This document shows positions 4,371-61,663 of a stretch of DNA of 64,000 nucleotides, piece by piece. This DNA comes from an uncultured Phycisphaerales bacterium (lineage in GTDB: Bacteria > Planctomycetota > Phycisphaerae > Tepidisphaerales > Tepidisphaeraceae). Made by a program: the position numbers and the translations under genes. Positions within the stretch are counted from its first letter, which is position 1, and each line of letters begins with the position of its first letter. Below the pieces are notes generated by a model. The model made no database searches. It was given only the letters and a program-made list of their open reading frames with translations, and was not told the origin of the DNA. Location of the stretch: the NCBI GenBank assembly GCA_963755915.1, contig CAVWLP010000002.1, forward strand, positions 1,728,001-1,792,000, written 5' to 3'.

Positions 4371-5555
4371 CCTTATGGAGACGACGCAGGCGGCGAGGAC
4401 GCTGATCCAGAGGATGGCGGCGACGGCAAAGATGGCGATGTGCGGGTTGCCGGGATTGAGCGTGGCGGCGAGTGCGCCGCAACTGGGGCCGAGGACGGCG
4501 CCGACGCCGATGAGGGCTTCGTGGTAGGCGTTCTGGGCGGTGCTGCCGTCGCTGAGGACCATTCCGAAATAGAGGCTGGCGGCGTAGATGAGGCCCATGA
4601 CGGCGCCGAGGGCGATTTGCCAGAGGATCATGGAGAGGGCGGAGGGGATGAGGGTGGTGCCGAGGAAAGCGGCGAGGAGGATGATGGCGGCGATGAGAAG
4701 GGCGCGGGGACGGGTGTGCCACCAGTTGGCCATGCCCAGGGCGAGGAATGTGAACCAGCGGGCGATCATCCAGACGCTGGCGAGGAGGGTACCGACCTGG
4801 GGGTCGGCGGCGCGGATTACCGGGAGGGTGGGCATGATGGCGCCCAAGGCGTAGACCACGGCGAAAGTTGAAGGAAGGGCGATGCGCGAGAGGCGCTTGG
4901 CAAGGGTGCGGAGGGGGATCAGCTCGGGATTGGGGCGAAGCTGGGCGTGTGGATGGGGCGTTTGGCGCTGGATGCGCAGGAGCATTGCGCAACTGATGAT
5001 GTGGCCGGTGGCGGCGATGAGGAAGATTGCCTGGGGCCAATGGGCGAGGATCAAACCGCAGGAAGCGACGGTGGCAGCGCCGACGCCGGACCAAACGAGG
5101 TTGTAGGTGGAAATCCGTCGGGACATTTGCGCGGGGGTTGCGCCGATGGAGATGAGGCTTTCGAGCAGGGGCCATTGGGCGGCGCTGACGCCGGCGTAGG
5201 CGAGCAGGAAGATTGAGAGGATGGCGGCGGATGGAGCGTAGAAGGCGGCGACGGAGATGACGATGAGGGCGATCTCGAGATTTCGCAGGAGTATCTGGCG
5301 GCCGAAACGGGTGGAGAGGGGGTTGGCGGCGAGAGCGCCGAGGGTGTAGGTGAAGCCCTGGCCGGCGGAAAGTATCAGGCTGCTTTTGGCGTCCCAGAGG
5401 AACTGCTTCTTCATGTAGAAGAAGATGGCGTACATGAGGAGGTTGGCGGAGACGGAAACGAGGCCCTGGATGGTGAAGAATTTCACCAGGAAACCGCGTG
5501 GGATGAAGCGGGCGGGGGGTTTGGCGGGAAAGAGGTCGGCGGCGAGCGTTTCCAT
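4353..5555 (-). CDS. Major facilitator superfamily transporter
   Basis: About 12 hydrophobic segments, motif A-like ANPLSTRFGRQ; start placed at METLAAD. Confidence 0.85.
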   Translation of the reverse strand: METLAADLFPAKPPARFIPRGFLVKFFTIQGLVSVSANLLMYAIFFYMKKQFLWDAKSSLILSAGQGFTYTLGALAANPLSTRFGRQILLRNLEIALIVISVAAFYAPSAAILSIFLLAYAGVSAAQWPLLESLISIGATPAQMSRRISTYNLVWSGVGAATVASCGLILAHWPQAIFLIAATGHIISCAMLLRIQRQTPHPHAQLRPNPELIPLRTLAKRLSRIALPSTFAVVYALGAIMPTLPVIRAADPQVGTLLASVWMIARWFTFLALGMANWWHTRPRALLIAAIILLAAFLGTTLIPSALSMILWQIALGAVMGLIYAASLYFGMVLSDGSTAQNAYHEALIGVGAVLGPSCGALAATLNPGNPHIAIFAVAAILWISVLAACVVSIRKRGRS

Positions 5556-57134: not shown

Positions 57135-60000
57135 TTATGGATGCAAGCCCGGTGAGCTTAAATCCTGCAAATACAGGAGCCCCATGAGGCTCTCATCCTG
57201 ATCGAAATCGATGGGCCCGGCCCAGCTTGCAGACTCGCCGGTTTCGTTGCGGTGCTGGATAAAGTTGAACTTCATGATCCGCGGATGCCCAGGCGAATCG
57301 TTGAGCAGCAGCTTCCAGGGGATGGCGACTTCACCCGTCCAGGCAGTTTGCTGCGGGTCGGCGGCGTAACGCACGGTTGTGCCATCCGTTTCCCGCCAGG
57401 GGTCGGCGTTGGTGCGCGGGTCGAGCCGCCGCCGTACCACGCACACGCCGTTGGGTTTGCACGCGAGGTAGGTCAGCGGGCCGGGGGTGTTGTCGTCAAA
57501 GATCGGCTGAATGAGCATCTCGCACAAATCCTCGCCCCAGGCCCGGCGGAATTCGTAGTTGACGAAATTCTGGTGCAGCTGCTGCTCGGGCGAAACGCCG
57601 TTGACTGCGAAGGCGACGTAAAAATTGTCCTCGCTCCAGGCGGTGAAGATCTGGGAAGTGGTTGCCGCCGGCGTGATGCGCCAGTGCTGGATCGAGGTGC
57701 GATCGACCATTTTGGTCAGGGGAGCGTCGTTGATGAGGTCATCCGCCGACCAGTCTTCGAGCTTGCCGTCGATGTGAAGGTTTCCCTCCCGGCGGGCGCT
57801 GGCCGCCACAGGGGTCATCACCTGCGCGGAGAAGGAATCGTGCGTGTACCCATCGAGGAAAGTGATCTCCAGCGGCTTGCGCGTTTGAGCATCGATGCGG
57901 TTGAGGTTGACGCGGGCGTTCATCTCGAAACGCTGGACGGCGTACGTGTGGAGCGCCCCGATGATCTGCGGCTCGGGCCGGAATTCCCAGCCATCGCCTG
58001 CAGCGGTCCATTGCAGCTGGTTGTCCTCCGGGCGGTTGTCGCCGGCGTTGTAGATATCCACGCCGAGGCGGAGGAAGGCCCATTTATCGCCGTTGGACCG
58101 GTTGGGATCGTCCCACATCCATTGGGCGGTTCGCGGGAGAATGTAGGGCCGCTCCTTGGGGGCCTGCCAGCGGATCATGTCGAGGTTGAGGCGCTGCTCT
58201 GATTTTTCGACGGAGGGGTCGTCCGGGAGAGATTCAGGCGGCCGCGCCAGGATCGACCGCGCGAGAAGCTGCCGGGCGTCGTCCCAGGTTGCCTGATCGA
58301 TGGTTCCGCTGAGCAGGCCGTATTCCGCATCGGGGGACTGCGTGGGCTGCAACTCGACCTGGCGGGTGAGGAGGCGGGCGAGGAGAAATCCGTTCGTGCG
58401 CATGCCACGCTCTTCGGCGAGAAGGAGATATTCGAAATCTTCCTCGGCTCGGCGCAACCATTTGAGCTGGATGCTGGGGACCGGACCATCGACGCCGAAC
58501 CAGCTTCCCGGATAAAACCAGGTGAGCTTTCCGGGATTTGCGGGCTGCGATGGATCGTCCTGATCGGGAAGCGCGCCGGCCCAGTAAACCAGGTCGGCGC
58601 GGCGGAGATAGGCGAGCCACGCCCAGAGCCGGACGTCGCGCTGGTCCATTCCCGCGCCAATGTAGGGGACGAGCCCCTGGGCTTCGGTGTCGAGCCAATA
58701 TTCCGGCGGCCGCACGTCGCTGGGCCAGCTTTGCGCCGCAGGTCCAAAGACTAAACCGGGTGCGAGCGCCGCGATTCGGCTTGCCATTTCGGGAGCGAGG
58801 GCCATTGGAAAAGATGAGGAGGCGAATTGAACCTGGCTGTCCTCCAGGGGCAAAATCGCCCGCAGCAGCGGATGGGCTTCGAGGATCGATCTTGCCAGCA
58901 TCGAATATTGGATGCTTTCCATCGCGCCTGGCGCGAGCGGAATTGCGCTTAAAGAGGGTCACCGCGGAATGCTCCAGCCAGTCCTGGCCGTTGAAATGCG
59001 TCGCGGCGTTGGACCAGTATTCGCGCTGGCTGGCCGGATCGTAATTATCGATAAAATCGGCGCGGGGCAGCGGCCAGAAACCGAGCGGAGTCTTGTCGGC
59101 GAAGCCATCGCCATTGAGCCAGGGCGAAACGACCGTGTCGAAATCCGACCAATCCACCGCGGGGCGATCGGCGGCGAGCCATTTCACCGTCGGCTGAAGC
59201 CGGGGAACCACGACCTCCACGCGATTCGCCTGGGCGAGCCCGACCAGTTGATCGAGCACCGAGATCGCCGCGGTATATTTATCTTCGCCGCGATTCATCA
59301 GCCGCGGCGTGATCGCCTCAAACGCGTCGGGATAAAGCGACTCGAGCCGGTCCCAATCCAGCTCGCTGACCATCAGCAGGTGCGGATTTTCGGGAATCGC
59401 GAAGTCGTAGACATGCAGCGTGCCCACCAGTGTTGCCGCCGGCGCGGCCAGGCCGTCGGCCGTGACCTGGCACTGAACCGCGTAATCCCCCGCTTTCGTA
59501 TTCTCAGGCACGTGCAGGTCGATCCAGATGATCGGGTAGCCGGGCGAGTGACTCGTACGCAGCGATCTCAGGTCGATCTCACCGTTATCGCAGCGCATCG
59601 GCAGAAGCGCACGCGGCAGTTCGCGCTCGCTGGCGGGCAAGCCGGTTTGTCTAAGATAGCCGGCGCGGTTGGTATCGACCGGCATCGGTAGCGCCTGGTA
59701 GGCGCTGACGCTCTCCGCGGAAATCGCCGGCAAGAAATTAACGCGAAGTTTCCATTGCAGGCCCTGCGGCAAATCGCCCACCTGCAGCGCGAGGCTCGTC
59801 CACTCATTTTTCGCGGCGGAAATTCCGATTTGCTGATCGGCTGCAATCGGCAGCATCGAATCGTTTACATCGATGAGGTTCAGGGTGATGGGCGTTGTGA
59901 TCGTTAGATTTTGCCGCGGCAAATTCTGCCGGCATCCTGACTCGACGCCCATGAAAATTACCACGGCGCAAAGGAATGTCGTTTTTGCAAACAGAGACAT
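57135..60000 (-). CDS. Large putative lipoprotein, DUF4091/glycoside hydrolase-like with CBM9-like C-terminus (frameshift near 58930)
   Basis: SGC signal; AAKNEW; WFYPG...PSIQLKWLRRAEEDFEYL; IDGKLEDW...WTGEVAIPW. Confidence 0.7.
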
Positions 60001-60163
60001 AATAAGGTGCGTAGTTGGTGTGCACTTCCGGGAGCTTTGCCACATCTTTCGCCGATTACGCATGTAAGCGGGTTGATCCGTGCCGGGGCCGAAAAGCTGC
60101 AAAATCGGCCCTGCGGTCCCAAAAACTCGGCGAACGGGAATGATTCTCTCCAAAATCGAAGTG

Positions 60164-60178
60164 TGGCACAACATTTGT
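60164..60178 (+). promoter_or_regulatory. Sigma54-like -24/-12 promoter
   Basis: TGGCAC-AACAT-TTGT, one mismatch at -12 to TGGCAC-N5-TTGC. Confidence 0.45.
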
Positions 60179-60189
60179 TCTACTAGTCC

Positions 60190-60350
60190 ACCGAAGGAAC
60201 GGAGATATGAAGTATTACAGGGATGTCAGGACGGTTGACAATACAACGGCGAGGTCTGGGGAGACCTGAGACCTCGCCACTTAAGCCTCGTTTCCTCCTC
60301 CGCCAGGCCGCACGGCTCTAACCCTCCGCCGTGCGGCCTATTTTATTTTT
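60190..60350 (+). ncRNA. Candidate CsrA/RsmA-binding small RNA
   Basis: Several GGA stem-loops including TTACAGGGATGT; upstream promoter-like site; plus-strand terminator although both flanking genes are on the minus strand. Confidence 0.55.
60305..60350 (+). terminator. Intrinsic terminator (plus strand)
   Basis: aggccgcacggc/gccgtgcggcct 12-bp stem followed by attttattttt. Confidence 0.75.
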
Positions 60351-61376
60351 CACTCCAGTTATTCACGGTGCACTCGATAACTGCATCGGGACAGGACCAG
60401 ACCAGGAAGAACATCGCCTCGCGCGCGAGCGCTGGGCGGGATGGTCGAGCAGAAGCCCGGAGCCTTTGTAGAGCGCAACCGCCGATTGCGTCATTCGCAC
60501 GGCCAGGTCGTGGCAGGAGGCGCGAAGCCGCGGGGCGTTTTCCGCGGCTTCGGAATCGCGATTATTTTGGCACAGTTCCAGGACCTCGCCGCGAATCTGC
60601 GATAGCTGCCGGGCAAATTTCTCGGCGAGCGAACAAGCGCGATCGGATTTTTCGTCTTGAATTAATTCGAGCGCCCCTTTGCAAAGCCCAAACGCCAGAA
60701 ATATCTGCCCCAGTGGCAGGCCCTTGGAAGAGCCGCTCATCACCTTTTCTACGGGCCCGCGCAAAAGCCATCGCCGATCGAGCCGTGCGTTGGTGATTTC
60801 AATCTGCGAGGTCCAGCTCGATCGCAGGGCCACCAGCTCCAGCGGCGGACGAACGGAAACGCCGCTCAAATCCGTGGGCAGGACGAAAAGAATCTGTTGG
60901 CCATCCTCCGTGACGGCTCCAGCCACGATATATTTCGCGATGGCCGCCCCCGTGCTCCAGGGAATCATTCCCTCAAGACGATATCCATCGCCCTCGGCAA
61001 TCGCCTGCAGGCCGCGCTGGCGGCTGGTGGTGAGCTGGGCGATCCCGATCGTCGCAAAGAATTCTCCCCGCGCCATTTGCGGCAAAAGCTCATCGCGCAG
61101 GGGGGAATTTTCGCTGCCATCGATCAGGCCGACGGCCGAGTCGCGCTGGGAGACGACCAGGGCCGTCGAAACCGAAGCCGAGGCGATCGCCTCGTAGCGC
61201 AGGTGCAATTCCAGCGGCTCGATTCCGTCTCCGCCAAATCGCTGCGGTACGAACCACTTGGGCCAGCCGATTTTCGAGAGTTCGCGTAAATCTTCTTCGG
61301 GCCAGCGGCCCCCGCAGTCCAGCTCCGTCGCGCGGCCGCGAATCTGTGCCAGCGTTTGGTCCAGTTGCAGCATCAT
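60343..61376 (-). CDS. Acyl-CoA dehydrogenase family protein (frameshift near 60425)
   Basis: WFVPQRFGG, FATIGIAQL, YRLEGMIPWSTGA, HPAQR..REAMFFLVWS; restored stop at 60343. Confidence 0.88.
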
Positions 61377-61663
61377 CAATTTCCGTTTCGCAAGCGGCCC
61401 AGCGGATCGCGCAAATATCGCCGCTGGCAGTTTGGGCAGATGCGATATTCAAATCGCCGGTGAACCTGGTCCTGAAGCTCCTGGGCCGTCATGTTCTCCA
61501 TTTCCTTCAGCAGATCGTCGATCTCGGCGTCAAAATCGGTGGCTTTCAATTCCGCTTCGCTCATCTCCGGCACGGCCGGGTCGGCAAATACGTCGATGCG
61601 CACAACGTAATGCCCGGCAGGGGAGAGTTCGCGGCCGCAGAGTTCACAGGTCGGGGGGGCCAT
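61376..61663 (-). CDS. Small putative zinc-binding protein
   Basis: CELCG...ICPNC; TGATG coupling to the downstream gene. Confidence 0.8.
   Translation of the reverse strand: MAPPTCELCGRELSPAGHYVVRIDVFADPAVPEMSEAELKATDFDAEIDDLLKEMENMTAQELQDQVHRRFEYRICPNCQRRYLRDPLGRLRNGN

Follow-up and report, generated by a model that had tools for sequence, protein, structure and literature searches.

The 64,000-nucleotide (nt) stretch of an uncultured Phycisphaerales bacterium analyzed here (the window) carries, between two minus-strand genes, a real plus-strand unit at positions 60164 to 60350 that comprises a sigma54-type promoter, a body of ~160 nt, and a 12-bp terminator. With somewhat better than even confidence, this unit is read as a single-copy, sigma54-dependent small RNA (sRNA) gene, a remnant of an mRNA for a CBM48 protein, that acts by base pairing of the anti-Shine-Dalgarno type. 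An earlier note on this DNA had proposed a CsrB/RsmZ-like RNA that sequesters CsrA or, alternatively, an mRNA for a 20-amino-acid (20-aa) peptide. Every element listed in that note was found in its place, and an independent plus-strand sRNA gene with an intrinsic terminator is supported by conservation, promoter linkage, and covariation of the terminator stem.

First, the distribution of the RNA was examined. BLAST searches of 60 relatives showed that each of the other 12 genus genomes holds a full-length homologue (13 of 13 with the window genome, in which the RNA gene is single copy); in many other genera, the match was confined to the last ~65 nt and frequently recurred within one genome. 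The last ~70 nt are identical across the genus except at 3 loop positions, and the neighboring proteins are 53 to 68% identical. This 3' module, ~70 nt long, consists of UCGUUUCCUCCUCCGCC and a hairpin with a CCCUCC loop and was searched for with a covariance model (alignment A2, model R1). Model R1 matched 112 of 141 genomes and 63 of 76 genera of family f1, with 1 to 6 copies per genome. A sample of the class gave matches in 35 of 151 genomes (15 of 20 in f1 and 16 of 20 in f5, with weak matches in f7 and f10), and a sample of the phylum gave one weak match among 150 other genomes. Exact matches of a 21-mer from the module to public genomes were all assigned to Phycisphaerae, Tepidisphaerales, Tepidisphaeraceae, or unclassified Planctomycetota; the carriers include Fontivita pretiosa B-254 (copy L117) and one Humisphaera metagenome-assembled genome. 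A second R1 match in the genome studied here, at 5415-5469 on the minus strand of the window (17.7 bits, E 0.36), is probably due to chance.

The terminator stem co-varies among these relatives. In f1, 99.7% of the alignment cells are paired and 4 of 10 pairs show compensatory changes; for f1 and f5 together, the values are 98.4% and 7 of 10. The 19-nt CU stretch, CUCGUUUCCUCCUCCGCCA, is invariant in 19 of 19 rows drawn from both families, as is CCCUC of the terminator loop in the same rows. A co-varying stem combined with an invariant CU sequence is what a functional single-stranded sequence on a structural scaffold would show, and a conserved seed flanked by co-varying structure, as found here, is characteristic of trans-acting base-pairing sRNAs.

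The promoter was analyzed in the same set of copies. For the pattern GGCAC-N5-TTGY, 1.25 occurrences are expected in the window and one is seen, and 72 of 100 shuffled versions hold at least one; what sets the unit apart from chance is its conservation, promoter position included, across 13 of 13 genomes of the genus. GGCA[CT]-N5-TTGN was found at most 300 nt upstream of 44 of 86 unique module copies, where the background is 0.03 per 300 nt. With T[TC]G permitted at -12 and a longer look-back, a promoter precedes 76 of 85 copies, and 5 of the other 9 have less than 450 nt of upstream sequence to examine. Positions that did not enter the search are constrained too: T or C precedes the GG in 98% of cases, G or A follows GGCAC in 85%, T precedes TTG in 92%, and G never follows TTG. 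In this they behave like the corresponding positions of a sigma54 promoter. The f5 copies examined, 11 in number, are all preceded by GGCA[CT]-N5-TTGC, with the canonical TTGC. These include tandem arrays of the bare module, one with three copies at ~117-nt spacing (L082, G234:C150) and one with two copies at ~108 nt (L204, G252:C33), each array with a single TGGCAC-type promoter. The sigma54-type promoter of the earlier note is thus borne out by its retention throughout the genus, its place ahead of most family copies, and its sigma54-like constraints.

The genome encodes the matching sigma factor, with one rpoN match, and 18 matches to Sigma54_activat (PF00158), none of which lies within the window, so that no enhancer-binding-protein gene was found beside the locus. 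An imperfect palindrome 8 nt upstream of the divergent gene's start codon is a candidate activator site. Among genus copies, all 13 have the pattern of this palindrome, TGYR-N9-YRCA, 157 to 205 nt upstream, against only 6 of 31 among the other copies with a promoter. Stand-alone sRNA genes with -24/-12 promoters that depend on sigma54 and occur as sibling copies are known in Qrr1-5, GlmY/GlmZ, and CrcZ; the window RNA has no homology to these, and its locus differs in having no enhancer-binding-protein gene next to it. Separately, a subclass of copies (L022, L025, L026, L031, L095, L114, L163, L168, and L180) shares a distinct GC-rich 5' element, conserved over ~65 nt, in which GAGCGCGGTTGGTTCCCAC leads into a long hairpin; the element lies ~100 to 220 nt upstream of the module. 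The promoter of this subclass is GGCAC-N5-TCGC, and the element had no Rfam match in L025 and L095.

Next, the surroundings of the module were compared. The 86 copies comprise 55 that stand alone, 22 that follow a CBM48 open reading frame (ORF), 5 others, and 4 cut by contig ends. The stand-alone copies lie behind a promoter and have highly diverse 5' bodies of 23 to 234 nt. In the 22 CBM48-linked copies, the ORF encodes ~106 to 109 aa matching CBM_48/AMPK1_CBM, the module is its 3' untranslated region (UTR), and in 19 of 22 the promoter lies ahead of the ORF, 382 to 455 nt upstream of the module.

The window RNA is collinear with both ends of this CBM48 mRNA. At the 5' end, the match covers the 5' UTR and ~11 codons, running from the promoter through CGAAGGAA and the ATG to ...GGGATG..GGACGGTTGA; in intact CBM48 genes, the codons over this match read M-T-S-I-R-D-D-G-T-V-E. 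After a gap, the alignment resumes at ...AATACAACGGCGAGGTC, the counterpart of the final codons (N-R-T-T-A-K-S...) and of the hairpin in the 3' UTR. BLAST aligned query positions 5-79 with 3-77 of L021 (E 2.5e-8), 4-79 with L134 (E 0.002), and 81-99 with 346-364 of the 383-nt L123 (E 0.007). L021 comes from an unpublished genome, G014; public contigs with the same homology are L123, L134, L062, L135, and L157. The region of the 5' AAGGAA hairpin aligns with CGAAGGAA, upstream of the CBM48 ATG, and AAGGA is kept in most genus copies (AAAGA in L009, none in L011). The hairpin at 60248-60278 is homologous to a GGCGAAG...CUUCGC hairpin that spans the CBM48 stop codon.

Synteny agrees with this alignment. 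Copies with and without the ORF share the same divergent flanking pair of genes (~360 aa and ~595 aa) in many genera. At E ≤ 1e-8, none of the 13 genus genomes gave a match to the small CBM48 protein, versus 21 of 24 other f1 genomes. From collinearity, synteny, and the missing CBM48 ORF, we infer that the genus carries an internal, originally in-frame deletion that removed ~88 codons, with a junction near 60239/60240. The 20-aa ORF would then be a fusion of the first ~11 and last ~9 CBM48 codons, and, given the collinearity with the mRNA ends, the GGA motifs and this ORF are best explained as relics of a Shine-Dalgarno site and codons. A small stand-alone CBM48 gene (open frames of ~107 to 160 aa) is also present in f2, f3, f9, and f11, where no CU module was found; because it occurs in families where the module was not found, the gene seems to be older than its 3' module.

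Known sRNAs derived from 3' UTRs or with dual function include CpxQ, SroC, and SgrS. The resemblance lies in the 22 copies whose seed and terminator form the 3' end of an mRNA, with the seed just upstream of the terminator. Unlike in those systems, the ORF appears to have been deleted at a syntenic locus, leaving a stand-alone sRNA with the promoter, Shine-Dalgarno site, and end codons of the mRNA.

If the 20-aa ORF were translated, the RNA would be an mRNA for a functional micropeptide, and some features fit such a role: the ATG lies ~17 nt into the RNA with AAGGA 7 to 9 nt upstream, kept in most genus copies, and the codons AGG/CGG GAT GT stand in the same frame in three clades. Yet the length and C terminus of the mini-ORF vary by clade (20 aa, 11 to 14 aa, or 10 to 13 aa), as can its frame with respect to the invariant block, and amino acid replacements are common at the variable codons. 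In L009 the start is GTG and a stop is missing, and in L011 the frame is a different one. A 16-nt block, GACGGUUGA.AAUACA, is invariant genus-wide at the nucleotide level in all of these frames, with no synonymous variation; its constraint is thus at the RNA level, not the peptide level. The peptide alternative of the earlier note was right only in a historical sense, in that the frame is a vestige of the ancestral one, but neither frame nor length is kept in the genus, and we consider a functional micropeptide extremely unlikely.

The proposal of a sponge, in which one or more of the CsrA (RsmA) paralogs would be captured and titrated by the GGA motifs of the 5' half, was then weighed. PF02599 matches above the cut-off identify three csrA paralogs in the genome. 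One csrA lies directly downstream of fliW in an operon (G000:C3:636292-636961, L001/L196), and two others have no adjacent fliW (G000:C2:925132-925290 and G000:C2:1451469-1451642). FliW is of the known protein antagonist type; that only one of the three paralogs is paired with it speaks for a sponge, and its presence beside that one speaks against. In favor of a sponge, the 95-nt 5' domain of the window RNA holds 5 GGA (~5 per 100 nt), AAGGA lies within a hairpin loop, ~3 GGA/GGG sites are positionally conserved in the genus, and an 11/12 match to the SELEX (systematic evolution of ligands by exponential enrichment) consensus is present. This match, reported in the earlier note, is by itself at chance level: one occurs in the window versus 0.27 expected, and 23 of 100 shuffles have one.

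Against a sponge, no Csr/Rsm covariance model matched between 59500 and 61000 at E ≤ 10. Of the 5 GGA in the window RNA (2.9 expected), only 2 are predicted to be unpaired. Across the 13 genus RNAs, GGA occurs 46 times versus 35.6 expected (1.3 times the compositional expectation), and across the other 31 promoter-bearing members 61 times versus 76 expected, with several members having none. Only the ~3 sites just mentioned are kept positionally, and two genus members (G010 and G002) lack GGA at the SELEX-like site. Of the GGA stem-loops drawn in the earlier note, all sequences are present, but aca-GGGA-tgt and gtca...tgac are not kept as hairpins in the genus. The GGA sites appear to be inherited from the Shine-Dalgarno site and from codons 5 to 11 of the ancestral CBM48 gene (R-D-D-G-T-V), and what the family keeps is the CU-rich 3' module rather than the GGA part. 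Promoters of the GacA/UvrY type carry an upstream box, TGTAAG-N6-CTTACA; at three mismatches, 6 such sites occur in the window (5.45 expected), and none of the 6 is within 9 kb of the gene.

The window RNA thus resembles CsrB, CsrC, and RsmX/Y/Z in its small size, its intrinsic terminator, some GGA (one in a hairpin loop), and the presence of CsrA in the genome. It differs in having no model match, no GGA enrichment, and no GGA as a family trait, in a sigma54-type promoter in place of GacA/UvrY dependence, and in a conserved part that is CU-rich and complementary to GGA. A sponge function did not hold up in this analysis and is very unlikely, but a single CsrA site at the AAGGA hairpin is possible. 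More generally, as this locus illustrates, coding relics can take the form of GGA motifs and a SELEX-like match without being CsrA sites.

The most likely function, as judged from the conserved features, is that of an anti-Shine-Dalgarno-type base-pairing sRNA, and the following path would lead to it. A sigma54-driven mRNA for a CBM48 (glycogen-binding module) protein of ~108 aa would have lost ~88 codons in frame. The remnant would have kept the promoter, the 5' UTR with its Shine-Dalgarno site, ~11 N-terminal codons, the last codons, and the entire 3' UTR. Selection would then have maintained the 3' module, with its hairpin, the invariant single-stranded stretch UCGUUUCCUCCUCCGCC, and the terminator with the CCCUCC loop. 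Sigma54 and an enhancer-binding protein would switch on the RNA in response to a signal, and its anti-Shine-Dalgarno-like motifs would pair with GGAGG-type ribosome-binding regions of mRNAs and block their translation. This pairing would work without Hfq or ProQ, neither of which was found in the genome (rated 81% complete). In sister genera, the role of the module would be that of an sRNA derived from a 3' UTR or with dual function. The terminator-loop motif is predicted to be unpaired with a probability of ~1.0.

The closest functional parallel is the 'cuckoo' group of Alphaproteobacteria (alpha-r14/NfeR1/CcsR). The alpha-r14/NfeR1 sRNAs have ultraconserved CCUCCUCCC anti-Shine-Dalgarno motifs that lie in unpaired regions of variable hairpins and are working seeds (PMC10746234); NfeR1 motifs silence mRNAs at translation initiation regions (PMC10746234; PMC4615179). 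NfeR1 has a sigma70 promoter (PMC10746234), and cuckoo RNAs have 2 to 4 adjacent hairpins, each with CCUCCUCCC in its loop; a search for them is reported to have given matches in alphaproteobacteria only (PMC4615179). The likeness consists of ultraconserved, unpaired CCUCCUCC(C) anti-Shine-Dalgarno motifs on variable stems and of several sibling copies per genome, including tandem arrays. Unlike in the cuckoo RNAs, CCUCCUCC is here linear and just upstream of the terminator, and CCCUCC is found in the terminator loop only; there is no sequence or model homology (the window RNA has no Rfam match), the promoter is of the sigma54 type, and the phylum is different. The window RNA is an analogue of the cuckoo family, not a member.

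Several observations weigh against a base-pairing sRNA made from a sigma54 promoter. In the window RNA, the linear CU stretch is predicted to be mostly paired, with an unpaired probability of 0.23 (genus mean 0.36, mean of other copies 0.48), and on average the stretch is not more accessible than the 5' domain. Scans for exact complements and for duplex energy identified no mRNA targets: the 25-nt seed region has 444 exact complements of 10 nt or longer in the genome, and 22,306 crude start sites reach -17 kcal/mol or lower, which gives no discrimination in a genome of 59% GC. The promoter pattern in its loose form is at chance level genome-wide, with 123 occurrences for the N5 spacer versus 75 to 123 for other spacers, and since the N5 spacer shows no excess, the pattern alone is no evidence for a promoter. 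The -12 element of the window promoter is TTGT, not TTGC. Where it forms a 3' UTR, the module could act in cis.

Transcript data add to these points. Parts of an 801-nt stretch around the locus matched 20 sequencing runs, 3 of them RNA libraries, and four runs (X1, X10, X19, and X20) were compared with the locus as assembled contigs, which carry no strand, ends, or level. The metatranscriptome run X10 gave one near-identical 228-nt contig over 60208-60426 with 5 differences. It extends 76 nt beyond the terminator and may therefore be DNA or the antisense 3' end of the convergent gene. RNA run X19 gave an adapter-flanked 140-nt insert (60038-60177) that lies upstream of the predicted start and stops within the promoter; possible sources are DNA and the 5' leader of the divergent gene. 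X20 contains relatives at 90 to 95% identity, and X1 is DNA. The contigs, from which strand and ends could not be shown, neither show nor exclude a plus-strand transcript.

Two candidate sets of targets were rejected. A 16-nt match at G000:C2:746223-746238 (L038) has the same sense sequence as the CU-rich stretch and lies inside an ABC-permease gene, where it codes for FLLRQ, and is a coincidence. Other long seed matches are on the coding-sense strand of repeated protein motifs.

RNAalifold pairs the CU stretch with the invariant GGGAUG...GACGGUU block; neither side varies, which makes covariation uninformative. Such pairing would explain the conservation of the relic, whose GGA-rich sequence in the 5' part may cover the linear CU stretch intramolecularly, as a lid on the seed. 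The same pairing of the CU stretch with the RNA's own 5' part also fits a different view, in which the locus is a decaying pseudogene remnant and the module a cis-acting 3'UTR or terminator element (for stability, termination, or autoregulation of CBM48 mRNA) that has no trans function here. That the RNA is derived from an mRNA, that the module is a 3' UTR in 22 copies, and that the mini-ORF is decaying all agree with this view. It is, however, hard to reconcile with the retention of module and promoter in 13 of 13 species of a genus lacking the ORF, with the 55 of 86 copies that stand alone and have no ORF, with up to 6 copies per genome and f5 tandem arrays of the bare module behind one promoter, and with a 16-nt relic block that is nucleotide-invariant across different reading frames. 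We regard a purely cis-acting remnant as unlikely.

The length of the invariant stretch bears on a further alternative. Nineteen identical nucleotides across two families go beyond the strict need of a short base-pairing seed, and no Hfq or ProQ was found as a matchmaker; the pyrimidine-rich stretch and loop might instead titrate or recruit a protein other than CsrA, such as ribosomal protein S1, a KH/CSD protein, or an RNase. Against this, the analysis turned up no candidate protein, no RNA-binding protein lies in conserved synteny, and the motif is a near-perfect anti-Shine-Dalgarno sequence of the kind seen in proven base-pairing sRNAs (PMC10746234). Protein binding as the function is given a slim chance, and base pairing with ribosome-binding regions remains the reading we prefer. 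The features of the locus are collected in Table 1.

Table 1. Positions of features of the sRNA locus within the window
Feature	Position	Strand	Remark
Candidate enhancer (bacterial enhancer-binding protein, bEBP) site, imperfect 17-bp palindrome TGCGTAGTTGGTGTGCA	60008-60024	.	157 nt upstream of promoter GG
Sigma54-type promoter TGGCAC-N5-TTGT (-24 GG, -12 TG)	60164-60178	+	Kept in 13/13 genus copies
Predicted transcript, ~160 nt	60190-60350	+	Start inferred from promoter geometry, end from U-tract
5' hairpin ccg-AAGGAA-cgg	60191-60202	+	Read as vestigial Shine-Dalgarno region of ancestral CBM48 mRNA
ORF ATG...TGA, 20 codons	60207-60269	+	MKYYRDVRTVD/NTTARSGET
SELEX-like site TTACAGGGATGT	60215-60226	+	11/12 consensus match
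Conserved block GGGAUGU...GACGGUUGACAAUACA	60220-60245	+	Columns invariant in 13/13 genus copies; frames differ
gtca-GGACGGT-tgac	60225-60239	+	Sequence present
Hairpin GGCGAGGUC...GACCUCGCC	60248-60278	+	In minimum free energy fold; immediately 5' of CU stretch
CU-rich anti-Shine-Dalgarno-like stretch CCUCGUUUCCUCCUCCGCC	60286-60304	+	Proposed seed 1
Terminator hairpin, 12 bp	60305-60316 and 60328-60339 (stem)	+	11-nt loop, 60317-60327
CCCUCC in terminator loop	60322-60327	+	Proposed seed 2
U-tract UAUUUUAUUUUU	60339-60350	+	After 12-bp stem

Folding of a 173-nt stretch gave -67.3 kcal/mol (z = -3.6), equaled by 1 of 200 shuffles. The aggtct-GGGG-agacct region is nested within the longer hairpin at 60248-60278, whose inner pairs show compensatory changes within the genus. 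A simple terminator scan missed the terminator because its 11-nt loop is too long for that scan, and a simple promoter scan, which covers sigma70 only, missed the promoter. Searches of Rfam assigned the RNA to no family. The whole window had 0 matches at the gathering threshold, cmscan of 59500-61000 at E ≤ 10 returned asX6 (17.5 bits) and RNaseP-T (12.3 bits) and no others, and for five homologous loci no match reached or approached the threshold.

The genes on either side lie on the minus strand, as the earlier note had said, one with its 5' part ending at 60000 and the other at 60363-61379. The minus-strand ORF 58234..60174 overlaps ORF 57135..58922, and its homology stops near aa 357; the actual gene is therefore placed at ~58927-60000. 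In relatives, two adjacent genes of ~360 aa and ~595 aa are conserved divergent neighbors of the sigma54-RNA locus in many genera. Neither protein matched a Pfam or NCBIfam family; an ESM Atlas search with a neighbor protein pointed to a GH123 N-terminal-like protein, as a lead only.

Almost no regulatory RNAs have been described for Planctomycetota. A table in a 2022 review lists 8 annotated sRNAs for the whole Planctomycetes-Verrucomicrobia-Chlamydiae (PVC) group (PMC9029176), and in the literature searched, no such sRNA was found described for Planctomycetes or Phycisphaerae. We class the RNA as a new sRNA family of a kind already known, with anti-Shine-Dalgarno-type base pairing and a sigma54 promoter, whose origin from an mRNA is unusually legible. 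The locus offers an unusually clear view of the change from mRNA to sRNA, since both states are found at one syntenic position in sister genera. As a conserved and easily modeled marker, the module points to sigma54-controlled RNA genes in two families of Phycisphaerae, and cultured carriers exist, such as F. pretiosa B-254 (L117), which opens the proposal to bench work. Only tentatively do we go further and suggest a sigma54-controlled, Hfq- and ProQ-independent family of anti-Shine-Dalgarno mimics that arose from a CBM48 3' UTR and was repeatedly freed from it as stand-alone and tandem sRNA genes, with the window RNA as a transitional form whose relic serves as a GGA-rich lid on the seed, on which CsrA could act. 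If true, no riboregulator family would have been described in Planctomycetota before this one.

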